IMG/VR virus record: IMGVR_UViG_2541047794_000003
DNA length: 32,443 bases
Source: a virus
Taxonomy: Duplodnaviria > Heunggongvirae > Uroviricota > Caudoviricetes
Direction: 5' to 3' (one strand)
Positions 3,986 through 17,759 of the stretch are shown in pieces (positions within the stretch are counted from its first letter, which is position 1; the number at the start of each line of letters is the position of its first letter). Below the pieces are notes generated by a model. That model was given only the letters and a program-made list of their open reading frames with translations. It made no database searches and was not told the origin of the DNA. The translations under genes were made by a program, and so were the position numbers.

Positions 3986-4177
3986 TTAAAGACCTGCCGG
4001 GATTTCGTTATTGTCCATGTGAATAACTTTATCGACCGGATAACAGTTGCCGGGAATTTTCTGTTCCGCTGCGGCAGCCATGCATTCTTTCATTGAGTTG
4101 TACATGCCGGTGATTGCATCAAGCGACTCACCAGTATTGAGATGTACAGTCAGAATGAGTACGAATAATGTGTTCAT
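3986..4177 (-). CDS. Small hypothetical protein with hydrophobic N-terminus (possible secreted/membrane peptide)
   Basis: ATG at 4175-4177 preceded by GGAGAG SD; the six-frame track start at 4183 is a GTG; ATGA overlap with upstream gene stop (translational coupling). Confidence 0.4.
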   Translation of the reverse strand: MNTLFVLILTVHLNTGESLDAITGMYNSMKECMAAAAEQKIPGNCYPVDKVIHMDNNEIPAGL

Positions 4178-4362
4178 CGCCACTCTCCGAAAATACCGAG
4201 TTTAAGAAGGGCAATTCTGGAGAGTATGGAATTGTCATTCAGCAGGTAGGGTTCATATTTTCTCATTTTGATTGCATCCTCGGTGAAATCCCTGTTACTG
4301 AGCAGAACACCAATATTAAAGCACCCGTCAGACGTATTAACGTTTGGTAGTGACGTTTCCAT
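4174..4362 (-). CDS. Hypothetical small protein
   Basis: 62-aa ORF with GAGGA SD 8 nt upstream of ATG (4360-4362); stop overlaps the downstream start (ATGA). Confidence 0.4.
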   Translation of the reverse strand: METSLPNVNTSDGCFNIGVLLSNRDFTEDAIKMRKYEPYLLNDNSILSRIALLKLGIFGEWR

Positions 4363-4372
4363 TATCGCGTCC

Positions 4373-4930
4373 TCAACTATGAATTTTTAGCAATTGCTCC
4401 ACAGTCATATTTTTAATTGCGCTCCGGTTTACAAGAGTCCATCCTTGTTTCTCCAGATAAAACCGGAAGGTATCCAGGGTGCAGACCATTGCGCCGTCAG
4501 GAACGGTTTCAGTGAATTTGATATTGCCGTGTTCGTCGAGACGGATAACCAGGGTGCGTCCGTCCCCGTGAATCATTTTGTCGGGAGACGGGGCGTTATT
4601 CTGGCGCAGTTCAGCTTCCATGCGGTCGAACTCAGCAATGTATGCCTCTTTAAATGCAGCGGCTTTTTTGCCAGTGAAGCCCATCACCAGGAAAACGAAG
4701 CCGTTTTTGGTGATTTGGTACATTGGGAGTTTGCGCCCGGTTGAGTCGGTGTATTCGCTCGACACAAAATTGTGCTCAGTGAATTTTGCTGAACAGTCCA
4801 GATTGCGAATTTTATCCAACACTCGTTCGTGGCGTTTGCCAAAGAACTCGGCGATCGCAACAGACGTAGTGACAGCGCGACCATTTTCGATGGTTACGTC
4901 AGGGTGAGAAAGGGTAAGGATAGTAGCCAT
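4373..4930 (-). CDS. Phage regulatory protein, Rha family (antirepressor-like)
   Basis: Motif TTSVAIAEFFGKRHERVLDKIRNL characteristic of Rha N-terminal domain; start placed at internal ATG 4928-4930 with GGAGG SD; the longer track ORF to 5227 would run through a terminator. Confidence 0.7.
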   Translation of the reverse strand: MATILTLSHPDVTIENGRAVTTSVAIAEFFGKRHERVLDKIRNLDCSAKFTEHNFVSSEYTDSTGRKLPMYQITKNGFVFLVMGFTGKKAAAFKEAYIAEFDRMEAELRQNNAPSPDKMIHGDGRTLVIRLDEHGNIKFTETVPDGAMVCTLDTFRFYLEKQGWTLVNRSAIKNMTVEQLLKIHS

Positions 4931-5097
4931 GATGGCAGCCTCCGCGATGAATTTGATTAACTCACCACCGAGGTTTTCCACGACCATAAGGGTGGTGAGA
5001 CGTACAGGGGTGGAAATACCGGTCATCACGGAACCCGGCCAGCCTTGCGGCTGCCCTGCACGCCCCACCATAATGCGAATGTGGCTGTGCTTAACGC

Positions 5098-5122
5098 ATA
5101 AAAAAACCGCCTGAGCGCGGTT
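5098..5122 (-). terminator. Rho-independent terminator (minus strand) in early-left operon
   Basis: Perfect 6-bp stem AACCGC/GCGGTT with 6-nt loop followed (on minus strand) by a U-run; lies upstream of the Rha gene. Confidence 0.5.
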
Positions 5123-5799
5123 ATGCGCCGTGAATGATTTCGGGTTTCCACGCCCGGCACCCGTTTTATGAGGTGCAGGTGCACTATAATTCCACCCGTT
5201 CTGGTTTTCAATAGCTACATTCAACATTTTCTCTCACCTTTTCAGCGGAGTGAACTTTGTGATGCAGTGCCTGGTGCCTCCAGGTGACGTTAACCAGTTA
5301 ACAATTAACGCCGGATACAGAGAATCCACCCATAACACTGTTTTTGGTTTTAACTGTTCCGCGTGCGCTGAGCCGCATTCACCGCATCACAAAATTCACT
5401 TTAAAAAGGGCGGCAGAGCAGTCACGGAGTAAAACTGATACCGCCAAACGTCACCAGAAAATTGATAACAGAGGGCGTTGCAGCGGGGTTGTCACTTAAG
5501 CGTATGGTCAACCTGACAACCCGGTGTCCTCAACGGGGGAAGGAATAACCCCGCCATACTTACCGCCGCGCCATTTCGCGGATTGCCACAACCGGAAGCG
5601 CACGGTCGACGAAAATTTAACGACAGGCTATCTATGAACCAGCTACCTCGCCGTGCGCTTTCGCGTTATGGTCTGACTTTTCAGGGAAATATCCTTTCAG
5701 TAAACTGTCAGTGCCGGATTCTTATCCGTGTCCGGCGCACGACCACACGCTGTCACGAGAGGTCTCCATTCTCAACCAGTAACCTCAATGGAGGATAAA

Positions 5800-5994
5800 A
5801 TGTCAGAGCAGGAGTTAAAACTTGGTGCATGTTATTGTGTTCTCAAGGAGCTGGTACACATGCTTCCATCTACTCAGTATCAACAGTTAGTTGGCAATTT
5901 AAATCAGCGAATCGAAGCTATGTTAAAATCTGATGGTTTTAATAACGTAGAAACGCTGATGCTAAAAAGATATCTTGATGGATTAATCAGATAA
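5800..5994 (+). CDS. Hypothetical 64-aa protein on the opposite strand to the early-left genes
   Basis: ATG at 5800 with GGAGG SD 5 nt upstream; converges on and overlaps 3' end of minus-strand gene 5983..6333. Confidence 0.45.
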   Translation: MSEQELKLGACYCVLKELVHMLPSTQYQQLVGNLNQRIEAMLKSDGFNNVETLMLKRYLDGLIR

Positions 5995-6333
5995 CATTTT
6001 TTTACGGCGTTCATATTCGTTAATATTTATGAAGCCTGTTGCCAGAAGCAGTTCGTTAATTTCATGGTTGTTTGGCTGTTTCTGGCTCTTTGAACTGGGA
6101 TCTTCCACTTCTTTTTCTGCAAATTGTTTTGCTGTATCCTCTGTGCCATGGATATTTAAAGCTGTATCTGAAAACAGCCCAGTAAACGCATCGCGCACAT
6201 TACGAGCCATATTATCAGTGTCTTTTTTTGTTACCGATTCCAATTCAAGTTCGTTCAGACGATGACGAAGTGTGTGTGCTGCAATCTCCTGGATTGAAGG
6301 AGGTAAATCTTTAAATTCCATCGTCAACCTCAT
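5983..6333 (-). CDS. Hypothetical acidic protein
   Basis: 116-aa ORF; start codon 6331-6333 overlaps stop of upstream gene (TGATG coupling); an alternative start 12 nt downstream has a GAGGT SD. Confidence 0.45.
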   Translation of the reverse strand: MRLTMEFKDLPPSIQEIAAHTLRHRLNELELESVTKKDTDNMARNVRDAFTGLFSDTALNIHGTEDTAKQFAEKEVEDPSSKSQKQPNNHEINELLLATGFININEYERRKKMLSD

Positions 6334-6485
6334 CAGTCAGTGTTTCTGGCTAACCAGCGACGCGCGCCAGCTGCGGTTTTAAACGTTTTGCTTTTGGTAT
6401 ACGTCATCGCGGTGAACGTACCGTCCTGGTTTGGGAACACACCACATACCAGAGATTCGCTGTTGCCAAGATCGATAGTATCCAT
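6333..6485 (-). CDS. Small protein resembling Rac prophage YdaF (DUF1391-like), first gene of leftward operon
   Basis: 50-aa reading frame MDTIDLGN...ARRWLARNTD from internal ATG (6483-6485) with GAGGT SD; sequence resemblance to YdaF is from memory; longer track ORF to 6566 lacks an SD. Confidence 0.5.
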   Translation of the reverse strand: MDTIDLGNSESLVCGVFPNQDGTFTAMTYTKSKTFKTAAGARRWLARNTD

Positions 6486-6671
6486 GCTGACCTCATTTCC
6501 CCTTAACGCCGGGGTAGCGGAACAAAAACCTGCTGCATAGTTATTAAAGTTGAACCCTGCCGTCATGTTCTTACGCCTCGGGCTGGCTACTTAACCCCTG
6601 ACCACTGCCTGGTAACTCGAAGTATTGCCCTGCATTCTGTGGGGCGGGGTGGGTTGGTATGAAAAGAAGGA

Positions 6672-6708
6672 TACCCATAGGTATTTAAAAAGTAAATACC
6701 CATGGGTA
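6672..6708. promoter_or_regulatory. OL-like operator pair: two TACC-N4-GGTA palindromes overlapping a leftward promoter
   Basis: tacccataggta (6672-6683) and perfect palindrome tacccatgggta (6697-6708), 25 bp centre to centre, just downstream of the repressor gene stop. Confidence 0.55.
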
Positions 6709-6749
6709 AATTTTGCGGTGTCTTAACTGGTGACTAGTTGTTTGGTGAG

Positions 6750-7169
6750 CTATGATGCGTTTTGTGCTTTCTTTTTACGGATTTCTTCGTAGATCATATT
6801 GTAATACTGTTTTTTCTCTTCAAGAGTTTTTAATAATTTATCCGCTTCACTTTCTGGCAGTTCGTCTAAGAGATCTAAAAAAATACGTTGTCGTGGCGTT
6901 AGAACCCTTGTTTCATAACTGGAGGCTGTGTTCGTTGATGATGAAACGATACCATCCATCCATCCCCGGGGTAACCCAAAGGACTCTTCGATAATCTCCA
7001 CCATATCATCAGCGATCCGTTTTTTTCCCTTTTTCCCCTCTGGGTACAACATTCTTGATACATAAGAAGGCTCGCGCCCGATCTTTCTGGCCACGTTAAC
7101 CGCTTTACCATCGCATTTCTCATCACGAATTTTGATGAGTTGCTGTCGTCTAAATTCATATTTGTCCAT
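6750..7169 (-). CDS. Prophage repressor (CI analogue), HTH_XRE type without S24 peptidase domain (RacR-like)
   Basis: 139-aa ORF with HTH segment AVNVARKIGREPSYVSRM; divergent from a Cro-like gene; flanked by operator palindromes on both sides. Confidence 0.75.
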   Translation of the reverse strand: MDKYEFRRQQLIKIRDEKCDGKAVNVARKIGREPSYVSRMLYPEGKKGKKRIADDMVEIIEESFGLPRGWMDGIVSSSTNTASSYETRVLTPRQRIFLDLLDELPESEADKLLKTLEEKKQYYNMIYEEIRKKKAQNAS

Positions 7170-7189
7170 AGGTAAATAATAGATGCGAT

Positions 7190-7245
7190 TACCGCAAGGT
7201 AAACAACCTGTGGGTATTGACTTTTGTTTACCTGTGGGTATTCTT
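7190..7245. promoter_or_regulatory. OR-like operator region with three TACC-N4-GGTA sites overlapping rightward promoter
   Basis: taccgcaaggta (7190-7201), aacctgtgggta (7205-7216), tacctgtgggta (7229-7240); -35 TTGACT at 7217-7222 and -10-like TATTCT at 7239-7244 between sites. Confidence 0.55.
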
Positions 7246-7269
7246 TGCTGTGTTTACTAAGGAGTAGCT

Positions 7270-7551
7270 ATGGAAGAATTAAGAATATTTCTCAATTCTC
7301 TTTCGTCAGATGAACAGCGTATGTTTGCATGCGAGTGTGGTACCAGCATCGGTTATCTAAGAAAGGCATTGAGTAAAGGTCAAGTGTTAGGGGCATCGTT
7401 ATGTGTCCTTATTGAGCGAGCCAGTAATGGTGAAGTTACACGTCAGCAACTAAGGCCTTTTGATTGGATGAATATTTGGCCCGAGCTGGAAGATACCAAA
7501 ACGTTAACACAACCACTTTCTAGGAGCTTGATTCATGAAAATCAAGCATGA
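7270..7551 (+). CDS. ydaS: Cro-like HTH regulator of the YdaS family
   Basis: 93-aa ORF, AGGAG SD, HTH TSIGYLRKALSKGQ; position and size match Rac YdaS; 17-bp overlap with next gene. Confidence 0.7.
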   Translation: MEELRIFLNSLSSDEQRMFACECGTSIGYLRKALSKGQVLGASLCVLIERASNGEVTRQQLRPFDWMNIWPELEDTKTLTQPLSRSLIHENQA

Positions 7552-11771: not shown

Positions 11772-11879
11772 TTTTATGGATCACCTTTCTGATTGATTTC
11801 ATATTGGCGAGGTGACGTGAGTTAAGTAGAATGGCTGCGGGTGCTTGAGGCTATCTGTCTCAGGCATGAACACTGAAAG

Positions 11880-11960
11880 GCAGATAGAGAAAAGCCCCAG
11901 TTAACATTTCGCGTCCTGCAAGACGCTTAACATTAATCTGAGGCCCAATCTATGTCTCAC
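11880..11960 (-). ncRNA. Candidate Sok-like antisense RNA of the hok locus (approximate bounds)
   Basis: Minus-strand region complementary to hok leader/mok start; contains GGGGCU hairpin element analogous to Sok 3' end; candidate promoter TTGCCT-N17-TAACCT on minus strand. Confidence 0.35.
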
Positions 11961-12008
11961 AAATGTAGGTTAGCCTCTTACGTGCCGAAAGGCAAGGGGA
12001 AGCAGGCT

Positions 12009-12164
12009 ATGAAGCAGCAAAAGGCGATGTTAATCGCCCTGATCGTCATCTGTTTAACCGTCATAGTGACGGCACTGGTAACGAGGAAAGACCTCTGCGA
12101 GGTACGACTCCGAACCGGCCAGACGGAGGTCGCTGTCTTCACAGCTTACGAACCTGAGGAGTAA
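12009..12164 (+). CDS. hok: Hok/Gef-family type I toxin (small membrane peptide)
   Basis: 51-aa ORF MKQQKAMLIALIVICLTVIVTALVTRKDLCEVRLRTGQTEVAVFTAYEPEE matching Hok family pattern; leader has tac/ucb-like elements; in-frame upstream ATG at 11952 (mok-like). Confidence 0.85.
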   Translation: MKQQKAMLIALIVICLTVIVTALVTRKDLCEVRLRTGQTEVAVFTAYEPEE

Positions 12165-16533: not shown

Positions 16534-16609
16534 GGCCCTTTAGCTCAGTGGTGAGAGCGAGCGACTCATAATCGCCAGGTCGCTGGTTCAAATCCAGCAA
16601 GGGCCACCA
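16534..16609 (+). tRNA. ileZ: tRNA-Ile (anticodon CAT, lysidine type; ileZ-like)
   Basis: 76-nt cloverleaf GGCCCTT...AAGGGCC-A-CCA; anticodon loop CTCATAA; near-identical architecture to E. coli tRNA-Ile2. Confidence 0.8.
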
Positions 16610-16616
16610 TCACATA

Positions 16617-16693
16617 CCGCCATTAGCTCATCAGGAAAGAGCGCCAGCCTTCGAAGCTGGTTGCGCGGAGTTCGGGTCCCCGAAGGCGGTCCA
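16617..16693 (+). tRNA. tRNA-Arg (anticodon TCG as read), atypical
   Basis: Cloverleaf with anticodon stem CCAGC/GCTGG and loop CTTCGAA; one mismatch in acceptor stem (A6:A67) and one in T-stem, T-loop TTCGGGT; ends CCA. Confidence 0.55.
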
Positions 16694-16706
16694 TTATCTG
16701 TATCCT

Positions 16707-16783
16707 GCGTTGTTAGCTCAGCCGGACAGAGCAATTGCCTTCTAAGCAATCGGTCACTGGTTCGAATCCAGTACAACGCGCCA
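16707..16783 (+). tRNA. argO: tRNA-Arg (anticodon TCT, reads AGA)
   Basis: Perfect acceptor stem GCGTTGT/ACAACGC, anticodon loop CTTCTAA, T-loop TTCGAAT, discriminator G, CCA. Confidence 0.8.
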
Positions 16784-16829: not shown

Positions 16830-17045
16830 CTCACAATTTAGGCGGTTGACTGTTGTCTGGTTTGCGGGGAGTTTGTTAAAAGAAACTGGCATGGTGAATC
16901 CCCCTGTGCGGAGGGGCAATCAGCGAGTAGGTATATGGGATAATCGCGGATTCAGGTGCTGGTACTGAATTCACCGGGAGGCACCCGGCACCATGCAATG
17001 GCACATAGCGCCACTCTCCAGCCCCTCTCCGGAGGGGCTTTTCTG
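16830..17045 (+). repeat. Module A of tandem structured non-coding element (conserved arms GCATGGTG.../...CACCATGC, internal hairpins, terminator)
   Basis: CTCACAATT + TTGACT motif, conserved arm gcatggtgaatccccctgtgcggaggggc (16889-), arm ctgaattcaccgggaggcacccggcaccatgc (-16996), terminator CCCCTC tccg GAGGGG + T-run (17022-17045). Confidence 0.5.
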
Positions 17046-17297
17046 TGCCGGATACATCACAGTTTCTGGAACCTTAGGTACTACAGTATCAGTCAGGGTG
17101 CTATATTTTCAGATGTGATGAAAGCCTGTCAGCAGGCAGGGCGTATCGGAAATGACCCAGTAGAGAAAACGTTGACTCAGATACCGGTGCTGAGTTACCG
17201 GGAAACCGGCATCACATGACCGCTATCCTTCCAGGCCCATCCGCTCCGGTGGGCCTTTTTACTGCAGAAAACAGGTTCCCCGTTAAATGCTATGTTG

Positions 17298-17532
17298 CTC
17301 ACAATTCAGTAAGTTGACAGTTGCCTGTCAGACTGGGCATTTGTTAAAAAAATTTCGCATGGTGAATCCCCCTGAGCGGAGGGGCGACTGGTGACGGTAT
17401 AATCTCTGATTATCAAAACGAGAATGACGCGGGTTTAGTGGCACCGGGCTGAACTCACCGGGAGGCACCCGGCACCATGTGCATGATGATACAGATACGC
17501 GGCTTTAGCCCCTCTCCGGAGGGGTTTTCTTG
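17298..17532 (+). repeat. Module B, second copy of the same structured element with divergent core
   Basis: Same conserved arms (17357-17479) and same terminator (17507-17532); central ~60 nt unrelated to module A; preceded by terminator GGCCCA...TGGGCC+TTTTT (17234-17261). Confidence 0.5.
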
Positions 17533-17759
17533 TGGGCAAAAAAAGCCCGCGCTGGGAGACGCGGGCGGCAAGGAATAAACAATAAAACGTGAAGTAATAT
17601 TTCAGCTGGCGAATAATACCCCATAGTAATCACTCTGCGCAACTGCGCGGTCTTTTTCGAATTGCGGGCTGTCGTCTCTCTTCTGCCATTGTCCTGTAAC
17701 TTCCGGACTTCAGCCCGCTCCTTATTTTACTCACAATATTATCCCGGCCGGGAGGATTC

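Follow-up and report, generated by a model that had tools for sequence, protein, structure and literature searches.

A dicF segment with a conserved, apparently undescribed RNA domain in the early-left operon of a lambdoid prophage at ompW

The window analyzed here is the whole 32,443-nucleotide stretch, one strand read 5′ to 3′, of the IMG/VR virus record IMGVR_UViG_2541047794_000003 (Caudoviricetes), which is a lambdoid prophage integrated at or next to ompW. This study concerns positions 5228-5799 and the genes around them, which a first-pass annotation had picked out as an unusual, long non-coding stretch with a 9-bp inverted repeat and a convergent gene on the opposite strand. Comparison with Escherichia coli K-12 identified the stretch as the dicF segment of a dicBF-type early-left operon, a known locus. 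DicF was among the first bacterial small RNAs (sRNAs) to be found, and to our knowledge its precursor has so far been treated as a plain spacer. Comparative analysis of that precursor placed the 9-bp repeat within a conserved, apparently undescribed RNA domain of 116 nt directly 5′ of DicF. The whole reading developed below, which combines the dicF segment, K-12-like processing, the structured domain, an inserted Rha unit and a convergent 64-aa gene, has in our estimate a probability of about 85%. The identity of the locus is shown by the match to the K-12 Qin prophage, the PGAP gene context and the Rfam matches above the gathering score. The structure of the domain and the coincidence with published DicF ends are also shown; the transfer of the K-12 processing map, the role of the domain, the promoter of the 64-aa gene and an IraP-like function are proposed.

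The coordinates of the features are collected in Table 1. The segment 4300-7200 of the window was 100% identical to E. coli AR_0017, and parts of this segment, which contains dicF, were matched by 4772 of 5426 complete E. coli genomes, so that the word unusual was not borne out. Alignment of 5251-5741 to the ydfC-dicF-dicB spacer of the K-12 Qin prophage gave an identity of ~98%. The Rfam model of DicF (RF00039) matched at 5459-5408 on the minus strand over its full length (1-52) with 76.7 bits against a gathering score of 48 (E = 1.8e-15), and the 53-nt sequence of K-12 DicF was found exactly at 5460-5408 with TTTTT next to it. On the strength of this identity, DicF of the window would be expected to act as K-12 DicF does (PMC10448788, PMC5069750). 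The operon context of DicF was likewise complete, with the C-terminus of a DicA-like repressor and the DUF1391, DicB and DUF1482 genes all present and an extra cassette splitting dicF from dicB. The order on the minus strand is repressor, terminator, ydfA-like gene, 112-aa gene, dicF region, IsrK, C4, Rha, dicB, ydfD-like DUF1482 gene, exo, xis and int. The downstream order Rha-exo-xis-int proposed in the first-pass annotation therefore has to be corrected to Rha-dicB-ydfD-exo-xis-int; dicB had been overlooked there, as had the DicF, IsrK and C4 RNA genes. The DUF1391 Pfam model matched aa 29-75 of the 77-aa open reading frame (ORF) of the ydfA-like gene (E = 1.6e-27), and a promoter scan of 6486-6672, between the repressor terminator and this gene, recognized no clear dicBp/pL promoter. 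The description of 5228-5799 as non-coding was upheld, with transcription leftward; the stretch holds just short ORFs of 31-71 aa without homologue support, and its sole PGAP feature is a pseudogene called 'DicB fragment' at 5252-5338.

Table 1. Features of the dicF region and the adjoining early-left operon in the window
Feature	Position	Strand	Evidence or remark
DicA/CI-like repressor	6750-7169	-	upstream of operon; DicA-like C-terminus
Terminator-like hairpin, 16-bp stem	6708-6672	-	directly 3′ of the repressor gene
ydfA-like DUF1391 gene, first of leftward (dicBp/pL-like) operon	6333..6485	-	PGAP coding sequence
112-aa gene (116-aa ORF from 6333; start probably M5 at 6321)	5983..6321	-	phrog_2151, E = 2e-55, aligned from residue 5
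Gene of 64-aa three-helix protein, weakly IraP-like	5800..5994	+	phrog_4987, E = 3e-49
Putative promoter of 64-aa gene, TTTTCA-17-TAAACT (-10-like TAAACT, 5701-5706)	5678-5706	+	inferred
5′ hairpin of 64-aa gene, GCCGGA-N12-TCCGGC	5713-5736	+	recurs in homologues
Segments facing the Shine-Dalgarno sequence (SD) GGAGG: UCUCCAU (5763-5769), CCUC (5783-5786)	within 5678..5795	+	inferred
Long imperfect helix 5′ of the domain, core arms 5663-5651 and 5605-5593	5593..5671	-	13-nt repeat, 92% complementary
Conserved pseudoknotted RNA domain, 116 nt, directly 5′ of DicF	5477..5592	-	comparative structure
Helix P1, GUUGUGGC with GCUGCAAC	5592-5585/5484-5477	-	closing helix
Helix P2, CCGCG with CGCGG	within 5581-5566	-	comparative
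Helix P3, CGGGG with CCCCG around CU-rich loop	within 5553-5534	-	comparative
Helix P4 (9-bp repeat), 19-nt loop	5522-5514/5494-5486	-	loop carries 3′ strand of pseudoknot
Pseudoknot, P2-P3 linker GGU..GUAUGG with P4 loop CCAUACGCU	5564-5554/5507-5499	-	proposed by RNAalifold
DicF sRNA, 53 nt, Rho-independent terminator, T-run 5407-5403	5408..5460	-	Rfam and K-12 identity
dicF-dicB spacer fold, closing helix 5400-5380/5269-5249	5249..5400	-	21-nt repeat, 90% complementary
Sigma-70 promoter-like site, TTGAAA-17-TATAGT	5183..5211	-	10/12 matches, best in 4300-7400
IsrK sRNA, with a1b1-type C4 target	5100..5176	-	Rfam RF01394, 67.7 bits vs 50
IsrK terminator, 6-bp stem, 4 G-C pairs, T7 run	5122->5105	-	terminator scan
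C4-type antisense RNA	4988..5075	-	Rfam RF01695, 81.9 bits vs 45
Rha/Ant-type regulator, 185 aa, ATG at 4930, SD GGAGG	4373..4930	-	Pfam Phage_pRha, E = 1e-30
dicB, cell-division inhibitor gene	4174..4362	-	Pfam DicB, E = 8.6e-33; PGAP annotation

In K-12, DicF is excised from the polycistronic dicBp transcript; RNase III makes the 5′ end of a 190-nt species, and RNase E makes that of the 53-nt DicF (PMC10448788). The 3′ end is either the DicF terminator or an RNase III cut that gives a 72-nt form (PMC5069750, PMC9438474). The 190-nt species is stable, accumulates in stationary phase and rises on RNase E inactivation, and most transcripts stop at the DicF terminator, a read-through form accumulating just when RNase E is inactivated (PMC10448788). 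Two further repeats in the window, which the first pass had not noticed, can be set beside this map, namely a 13-nt repeat (5593-5605/5651-5663) and a 21-nt repeat (5249-5269/5380-5400). The former extends into a longer helix in both the minimum-free-energy fold and the centroid fold, and a 190-nt RNA ending at 5408 would start at ~5597, within its 3′ arm. A 72-nt RNA starting at 5460 would end at 5389, within the 5′ arm of the latter. Both long helices are plausible RNase III substrates; the upstream one is probably the site that creates the 5′ end of 190-nt DicF, and the downstream one probably the site that creates the 3′ end of the 72-nt form.

The region 5741-5249 is in this reading RNA-processing machinery rather than coding sequence, and the K-12 processing map would carry over to the prophage as follows. 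On derepression, leftward transcription would pass through the ydfA-like and 112-aa genes into 5741-5249. RNase III would cut the helix at 5671-5593 to leave a precursor of ~190 nt with the 116-nt domain as its 5′ body, RNase E would then cleave the AU-rich unpaired stretch immediately 3′ of the domain, and DicF (5460-5408) would result, ending at its own terminator. Transcripts that read through would be cut by RNase III in the 21-bp helix that closes the downstream spacer. Before processing, GUUGUGG (5586-5592), which is the 5′ strand of helix P1, can alternatively pair with CCAUAAC upstream (5665-5671) and so lengthen the RNase III helix; closure of the domain might therefore require prior RNase III cleavage.

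The spacer between dicF and dicB is itself folded. The reiterations of GTTAAC and TTAAC that had been reported near 5290-5310 were confirmed at 5286-5312, where they form the arms and loop of a hairpin, GGCGUUAA...UUAACGUC (5312-5286), which is followed by a CCUGG/CCAGG hairpin at 5284-5270. Positions 5256-5396 matched model positions 21-154 of the 206 of STnc100 (RF02076) with 33.1 bits (E = 4.5e-5), short of the gathering score of 47, and the homologous spacer block of phage P7 scored 43 bits against the same model.

The perfect 9-bp repeat GGGTTGTCA/TGACAACCC was found exactly where the first-pass annotation had placed it, at 5486-5494 and 5514-5522 with a 19-nt spacer. By itself it is not significant, as 6% of 2000 dinucleotide shuffles of 5228-5799 contained a perfect 9-bp repeat with a loop of 3-40 nt; the repeat is taken as real because of comparative evidence, not because of repeat statistics. 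This evidence showed that its hairpin is helix P4 of the conserved RNA domain, in which helices P1 to P4 are joined by a pseudoknot between the P2-P3 linker and the P4 loop. In an alignment of 28 sequences (A7), 96.3% of the cells were paired and seven pairs were changed on both sides, against 2.6 ± 1.2 in shuffled alignments. The corresponding values were 96.5% and ten pairs (shuffled, 3.4 ± 1.3) in an alignment of 21 sequences that included other genera (A8), and 94.7% and ten pairs (shuffled, 3.4 ± 1.2) in 57 distinct sequences re-aligned to the covariance model R1 (A9). None of 500 shuffles reached the observed number in any of the three, and sliding the 3′ partners by 1-3 columns lowered pairing to 28-64% in all of them. 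An apparent compensatory change in locus L033 was offset by one position and was not counted.

Helix P4 carries compensatory changes in five of its nine pairs, in sequences of Citrobacter, Izhakiella and the P1 type. Its arms co-vary to GGGTAACCA/TGGTTACCC (= GGGUAACCA/UGGUUACCC) in Izhakiella, to GGATTGTCA/TGGCAATCC (= GGAUUGUCA/UGGCAAUCC) in Citrobacter and to GAGTTGCCA/TGGCAACTC (= GAGUUGCCA/UGGCAACUC) in the P1 type. Helix P3 was maintained across at least seven different stem sequences; as its indels blocked counting on the MAFFT alignment, it was assessed by per-sequence folding and re-alignment to the model. On the same MAFFT alignment, RNAalifold left out P1 and P4 because it chose the competing pseudoknot strand. 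The pseudoknot shows one compensatory pair (UA to CG, P1 type) and U.G intermediates. Rfam, searched at E ≤ 5, gave no match over 5469-5741 and hence none to the domain, and a description of the domain was not found in the searchable literature, outside which older work on 'dicF-like' sequences might already describe the conserved upstream block.

The block with the repeat (5469-5592) was found to travel independently of DicF. Distant BLAST matches of 77-90% identity lay in phages cdtI, Ayreon and 2H10, in Stx2c phages and in Salmonella phage F1055, and a further copy lies in the leader of the P1 ban operon, labeled "dicF-like region" in the P1 record. Pattern scans yielded 120 stretches from viral contigs, which, pooled with previously fetched loci, gave 68 distinct versions of the core, and they added copies in Escherichia albertii, Escherichia ruysiae, Shigella, Citrobacter, Trabulsiella, Erwinia tracheiphila and Izhakiella; about half of the pattern matches in the genome collection were chance matches in GC-rich genomes and were discarded. 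The domain thus spans lambdoid phages, the P1 ban leader and five enterobacterial genera. Searched with the covariance model, each locus gave a single copy, and the rightward operon of the window gave none. Every copy is followed within ~20-60 nt by an intrinsic terminator, and the intervening segment and the terminator vary by type. At least eight different seed/terminator modules were distinguished, including canonical DicF, a short DicF variant, at least three other seeds, and the cdtI/Stx2c, P1, Salmonella and SD/start-codon hairpin types. In members of the last type (loci L167 of Trabulsiella, L173 of Erwinia and L176 of Izhakiella, and L054), the hairpin or terminator after the domain encloses an SD and a start codon (e.g., CAGGAGGAGCGAAGATAATG), so that it looks like a translated leader inside a terminator. 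Just 5′ of P1 stands a conserved GUGC(G/U)CU(U/C)(C/U), at 5605-5594 in the window, which in the canonical type is the 3′ arm of the RNase III helix; in the cdtI, L039, L054 and Erwinia types it reads UGCUCUC(U)U and is boxA-like (UGCUCUUU).

From these patterns we infer that the domain serves a modular phage sRNA cassette as its stable 'pro-domain', which would protect the 5′ end of the precursor and position the RNase E cut. The cassette would run, in order, from an RNase III helix through the structured pro-domain and a single-stranded RNase E entry site with the seed to the terminator. The conserved loops together with the pseudoknot suggest that the domain also binds a partner. The sequence of the P3 loop (5553-5534 and homologues) varies, but all versions are rich in C and U and resemble an anti-SD (UUAUUCCUU, UUCCUCCAUUG, CUAGUCCUC); the loop might act as a second seed or bind a protein.

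Several points weigh against this interpretation. The published DicF ends come from K-12 transcripts, and in the present prophage they are predictions. The pseudoknot depends on a single compensatory pair, helix P1 pairs poorly in the P1-phage sequences, and the columns GCGGCGGTAAG and CAGGTTGACC were fixed by the search patterns, which makes their invariance uninformative. A simple processing scaffold leaves the near-invariant unpaired loop bases and the pseudoknot unexplained, and in cdtI/Stx2c-type phages the domain is kept with hardly any single-stranded seed before the terminator. Two points concerning the 64-aa protein, namely a Pfam score below the cut-off and the absence of IraP from its relatives, are given with that gene below.

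In the main rival explanation, the 116-nt domain is a cis-acting processive antiterminator RNA, similar to HK022 put or Bacillus EAR, that modifies RNA polymerase to read through the terminators of DicF, IsrK and later genes. Phages without N could in this way express dicB, exo, xis and int, or ban in the case of P1. The positions of the domain agree with such a role. In the cdtI/Stx2c type, it lies at most ~340 nt after cI at the head of the early-left operon with a strong terminator directly 3′, and an N-like gene was not detectable in these phages. In P1, it lies ~60-80 nt after the C1-controlled Pban promoters, with a terminator, tRNA genes and ban further on. Between 6672 and the domain, the window showed no terminator-like site, and the first one afterwards is that of DicF. 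Invariant loops and a pseudoknot would suit an RNA that binds a macromolecule, several types have a boxA-like UGCUCUCUU 5′ of helix P1, and HK639 has an annotated 126-nt putL-like RNA at the same relative place. However, similarity to HK022 put was not significant (local score 16-18, against a shuffle mean of 15 and a maximum of 22-23), model R1 had no match in the early regions of HK022 or HK639, and four helices with a pseudoknot differ from the two stem-loops of put. In addition, the main species of K-12 stops at the DicF terminator, ~35 nt past the domain, and the window holds a single copy, with none in the rightward operon. The silence of Rfam on the domain cannot by itself exclude put, because Rfam had no match in the put regions of HK022 either. 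Weighing both sides, we regard an antiterminator as unlikely, and we are similarly doubtful of the broader proposal that the domain represents a new class of phage cis-regulatory RNA, either a processive antiterminator or another polymerase- or factor-binding element, placed before an sRNA-type terminator in lambdoid phages that lack N and in the P1 ban operon. If that proposal were true, one transcription unit would give a DicF-family sRNA on termination or the downstream early genes on read-through.

The convergent gene on the plus strand was confirmed as reported, with 64 codons, an ATG, the SD GGAGG and an overlap of 12 bp with the 3′ end of the minus-strand ORF 5983-6333, and it is the only plus-strand gene seen in the examined part of the left arm. 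It proved to be conserved in related prophages, contrary to the outcome that the first-pass annotation had named as refuting. Its homologues share 36-98% identity with it and come from E. coli, Salmonella, Citrobacter and further hosts. Compared with Salmonella, it showed nine synonymous and nine non-synonymous codon differences with third positions enriched. In five prophage contexts, the gene is the sole one running against the early-left operon. It converges on a minus-strand gene in four of these contexts, with an overlap of 4-33 bp, and in at least three a structured RNA with a terminator lies on the other strand, within a gap of several hundred bp before the gene. Conservation of this kind marks it as a real gene. 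The first-pass 116-aa gene opposite it was also found to have a full-length homologue of 119 aa in a Salmonella locus (L009), which likewise converges on the small gene; the start of the window gene was moved to the more probable M5. NCBIfam and PADLOC had no match for either protein, and Pfam had none for the 112-aa protein. The two genes were present as a whole module in 152 of 5426 E. coli genomes, O104:H4 included. We propose that the 64-aa gene is an accessory ('moron') gene, convergent with the operon and expressed separately from it.

The elements at 5678..5795 are putative expression signals of this gene. The hairpin, the blocks GGTCTCCATT and ATGGAGGAT and a -10-like hexamer 6-8 nt before the hairpin recur in homologues from Salmonella, Citrobacter, L135 and L137; the fold of the leader 5678..5795 was not significant alone (z = -1.1). 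The hairpin GCCGGA..UCCGGC and the SD-sequestering motif also accompany a distant homologue (44% identity) in the loci L135/L136 (3520-4000), where, however, a different structured RNA with a terminator replaces the 116-nt domain on the opposite strand. The presence of the small gene raises the alternative that the stretch is mainly its 5′ leader or promoter region, in which a plus-strand transcript from the GTTAAC block (TTAACA-16-GAGAAT, 5298-5325), antisense to DicF, would express the gene and silence the dicF precursor through RNase III. A promoter-like match does lie at 5298-5325, and a gap of ~480 bp before the gene, with the structured RNA on the other strand, recurs across prophage contexts. 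However, K-12 and most E. coli genomes have the same sequence and the same promoter-like match without the 64-aa gene, and the match itself is weak (9/12; four sites found, against 4.4 expected in shuffles). Moreover, the G.U pairs of the conserved helices fit the minus strand alone, and a nearer -10-like hexamer by the conserved 5′ hairpin is common to all homologues. We therefore consider an antisense leader improbable.

Two weaker explanations of the stretch can be set aside as very improbable. That the 9-bp repeat is a palindrome at the level of DNA (an operator or a recombination site) or a chance match agrees with its frequency in shuffles, but its arms co-vary in other genera where the sequence itself is not kept, its loop is conserved more than its stem and pairs with an upstream segment, and its intermediates are G.U pairs on the minus-strand RNA alone that would be A.C mismatches on the plus strand, and therefore the structure belongs to a minus-strand RNA and not to a DNA palindrome. 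That the stretch is decayed coding sequence, either the PGAP pseudogene (5252-5338) or an N-terminal extension of DicB like that of phage mEp460, whose 94-aa 'DicB' annotation reaches into the homologous spacer, is hardly credible either, given that the K-12 reference treats the spacer as non-coding and begins dicB at the ATG of the 62-aa form, that the segment matches the STnc100 covariance model (below threshold) and forms the 21-bp helix, and that P7 and D6 carry the same block away from any dicB gene.

As to the function of the 64-aa protein, Pfam Anti-adapt_IraP (PF10796) was the top match for five of six family members (best E = 4.6e-5), and an hhalign comparison with an IraP alignment gave a probability of 30% (E = 5.5e-4) over 59 gapless columns. 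The window protein itself scored 14.4 bits against a cut-off of 23.2 (E = 0.062), and a hidden Markov model search of 1.84 billion proteins gave six relatives, none among the retrieved IraP sequences; these are the two unfavorable points announced above. Direct BLASTP against IraP and tblastn against the phage collection gave no match. The AlphaFold2 (AF2) model is a three-helix bundle (pLDDT 80), and a fold search with it against PDB and BFVD returned nothing at E ≤ 0.001, a three-helix bundle being uninformative in such a search. We regard an IraP-like anti-adaptor as a tentative lead, with the balance against it, and not as family membership.

A second unit lies between the dicF spacer and dicB. 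A cassette of about 5248-4376 is inserted there, with the copies of an imperfect direct repeat at its two ends, CACAAAGTTCACT (5261-5249) and CTAAAAATTCATAG (4390-4377); K-12 has this sequence once (CACAAAATTCATTG). The minus-strand terminator that had been reported to separate the block from Rha is present; it is, however, the 3′ end of the IsrK sRNA itself and not a free-standing barrier. Of the two alternatives proposed for Rha, an antitermination requirement or an independent promoter, the promoter alternative holds, with a promoter-like site at 5211-5183 placed to start IsrK at ~5176, and RNA-based control appears likelier than simple antitermination. The c4-a1b1 model gave a weak match in the 5′ half of IsrK (5137-5189; 25.7 bits against a threshold of 46.7, E = 6e-4). 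The C4 segment UUUCCACCCC (5016-5007) is complementary, as an inverted repeat, to GGCGUGGAAA in IsrK (5154-5145) and partly complementary to GUCGUGGAAAA (4984-4974), ~40 nt upstream of the Rha ribosome-binding site; one complementary pair was thus found per C4 site, in IsrK and in the Rha leader. In Gifsy-1, the mRNA that results from read-through at the IsrK terminator is inactive, and the short IsrK RNA activates it in trans (PMC4825925). Control of Rha in the window would most likely follow the antisense and activating RNA logic of P1 immI and Gifsy-1 IsrK (PMC4825925), with C4 and IsrK acting on the read-through mRNA, because the IsrK and C4 RNA genes lie before the true Rha start.

The PGAP ORF of Rha (4373-5227, 284 aa) runs across both the C4 and the IsrK genes and has the IsrK terminator inside it. 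We place the true start at the ATG at 4930, and the annotated ORF is over-extended across two RNA genes. A match to 'Phage_ASH' (PF10554) at aa 14-109 of this ORF (window 4931-5227) falls exactly on the IsrK and C4 genes. It may be that the 'Ash' family of Pfam is largely an artefact, made up of translated RNA genes. The Salmonella locus L009 (1614-3497) has three IsrK-C4 modules in tandem, and each of them is overlain by an ORF with a Phage_ASH match. The TGA stop codon of Rha falls inside the SD region of dicB (TTGAGGA), an arrangement suggestive of translational coupling.

Most of the finding is a rediscovery, of a known locus (DicF) joined to a known control module (IsrK/C4). What goes beyond prior description is the covarying pseudoknotted domain before DicF-family sRNAs and the conserved antisense small gene. 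If the domain is real, DicF would be one member of a family of modular phage sRNA cassettes with interchangeable seeds, and there would be a concrete, mutable structure with which to test how the 190-nt and 53-nt forms arise and what makes the long form stable. Control of termination by the domain, if it occurs, would account for the expression of exo, xis and int beyond two sRNA terminators in N-less prophages of this kind. The locus also shows that an IsrK-C4-antirepressor switch can be acquired by the operon of a toxic division inhibitor. It contains a conserved antisense small gene with a possible effect on RpoS stability and, as a point of annotation, a Rha ORF that has been drawn too far over two RNA genes.

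Among known systems, HK022/HK639 put and Bacillus EAR are likewise structured RNAs (~70-125 nt) of an early operon, after the promoter and before terminators, in phages without a recognizable N, and the domain occupies the corresponding position after the early promoter and before the operon terminators in the window, in cdtI and in the P1 ban leader. In contrast to put and EAR, the window domain has no sequence or covariance-model similarity to them (HK022, HK639), has other helices, and is followed by an sRNA-type terminator that works in K-12. IraP is an anti-adaptor that protects RpoS from RssB/ClpXP. The 64-aa protein is also small and all-helical, and its residues 7-64 align without gaps to IraP 25-83; it differs in having 64 rather than 86 aa and no N-terminal helix, and in being prophage-borne and antisense in an early-left operon. 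The dicF-dicB spacer matches the core (21-154) of STnc100/PasD (RF02076), including the long closing helix and the CCNGGAGGCACCNGG hairpin; unlike STnc100, it lacks the 5′ end and the terminator and lies inside an operon as a spacer instead of being a gene of its own. Elsewhere in the window, the plus strand holds at 11839-12014, 16534-16780, 16860-17050 and 17328-17537 a sok antitoxin RNA, three tRNA genes and two tandem full-length copies of STnc100, and STnc100-like blocks stand beside the tRNA genes of the ban operon in P1 and P7.

The Rha unit has the same order as Gifsy-1 isrK-orf45-anrP and P1 immI c4-icd-ant, namely promoter, IsrK (a1b1-like) with a terminator, C4-type RNA and a gene of the antirepressor family (PMC4825925), and the complementary UUUCCAC/GUGGAAA segments occur in the window too. 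An upstream ORF like orf45 or icd was not identified in the window unit. The terminator of Gifsy-1 and P1 immI is leaky, and IsrK of the window has a promoter and a terminator that are read from the sequence; the window unit differs in lying within a dicBF operon with dicB next and in having a regulator of the Rha family. The closest relative remains K-12 Qin dicBF (ydfABC-dicF-dicB-ydfD), which has the same DicF, a 98% identical processing region (5251-5741) with helices at the published RNase III sites, and the same operon logic of a DicA-like repressor, a ydfA-like gene, dicF, dicB and ydfD. Compared with Qin, the window has the 112-aa and convergent 64-aa genes in place of ydfB/ydfC, and its IsrK-C4-Rha cassette separates dicF from dicB. 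Whereas Qin is cryptic, the prophage of the window, located at ompW with exo, xis and int, looks intact.

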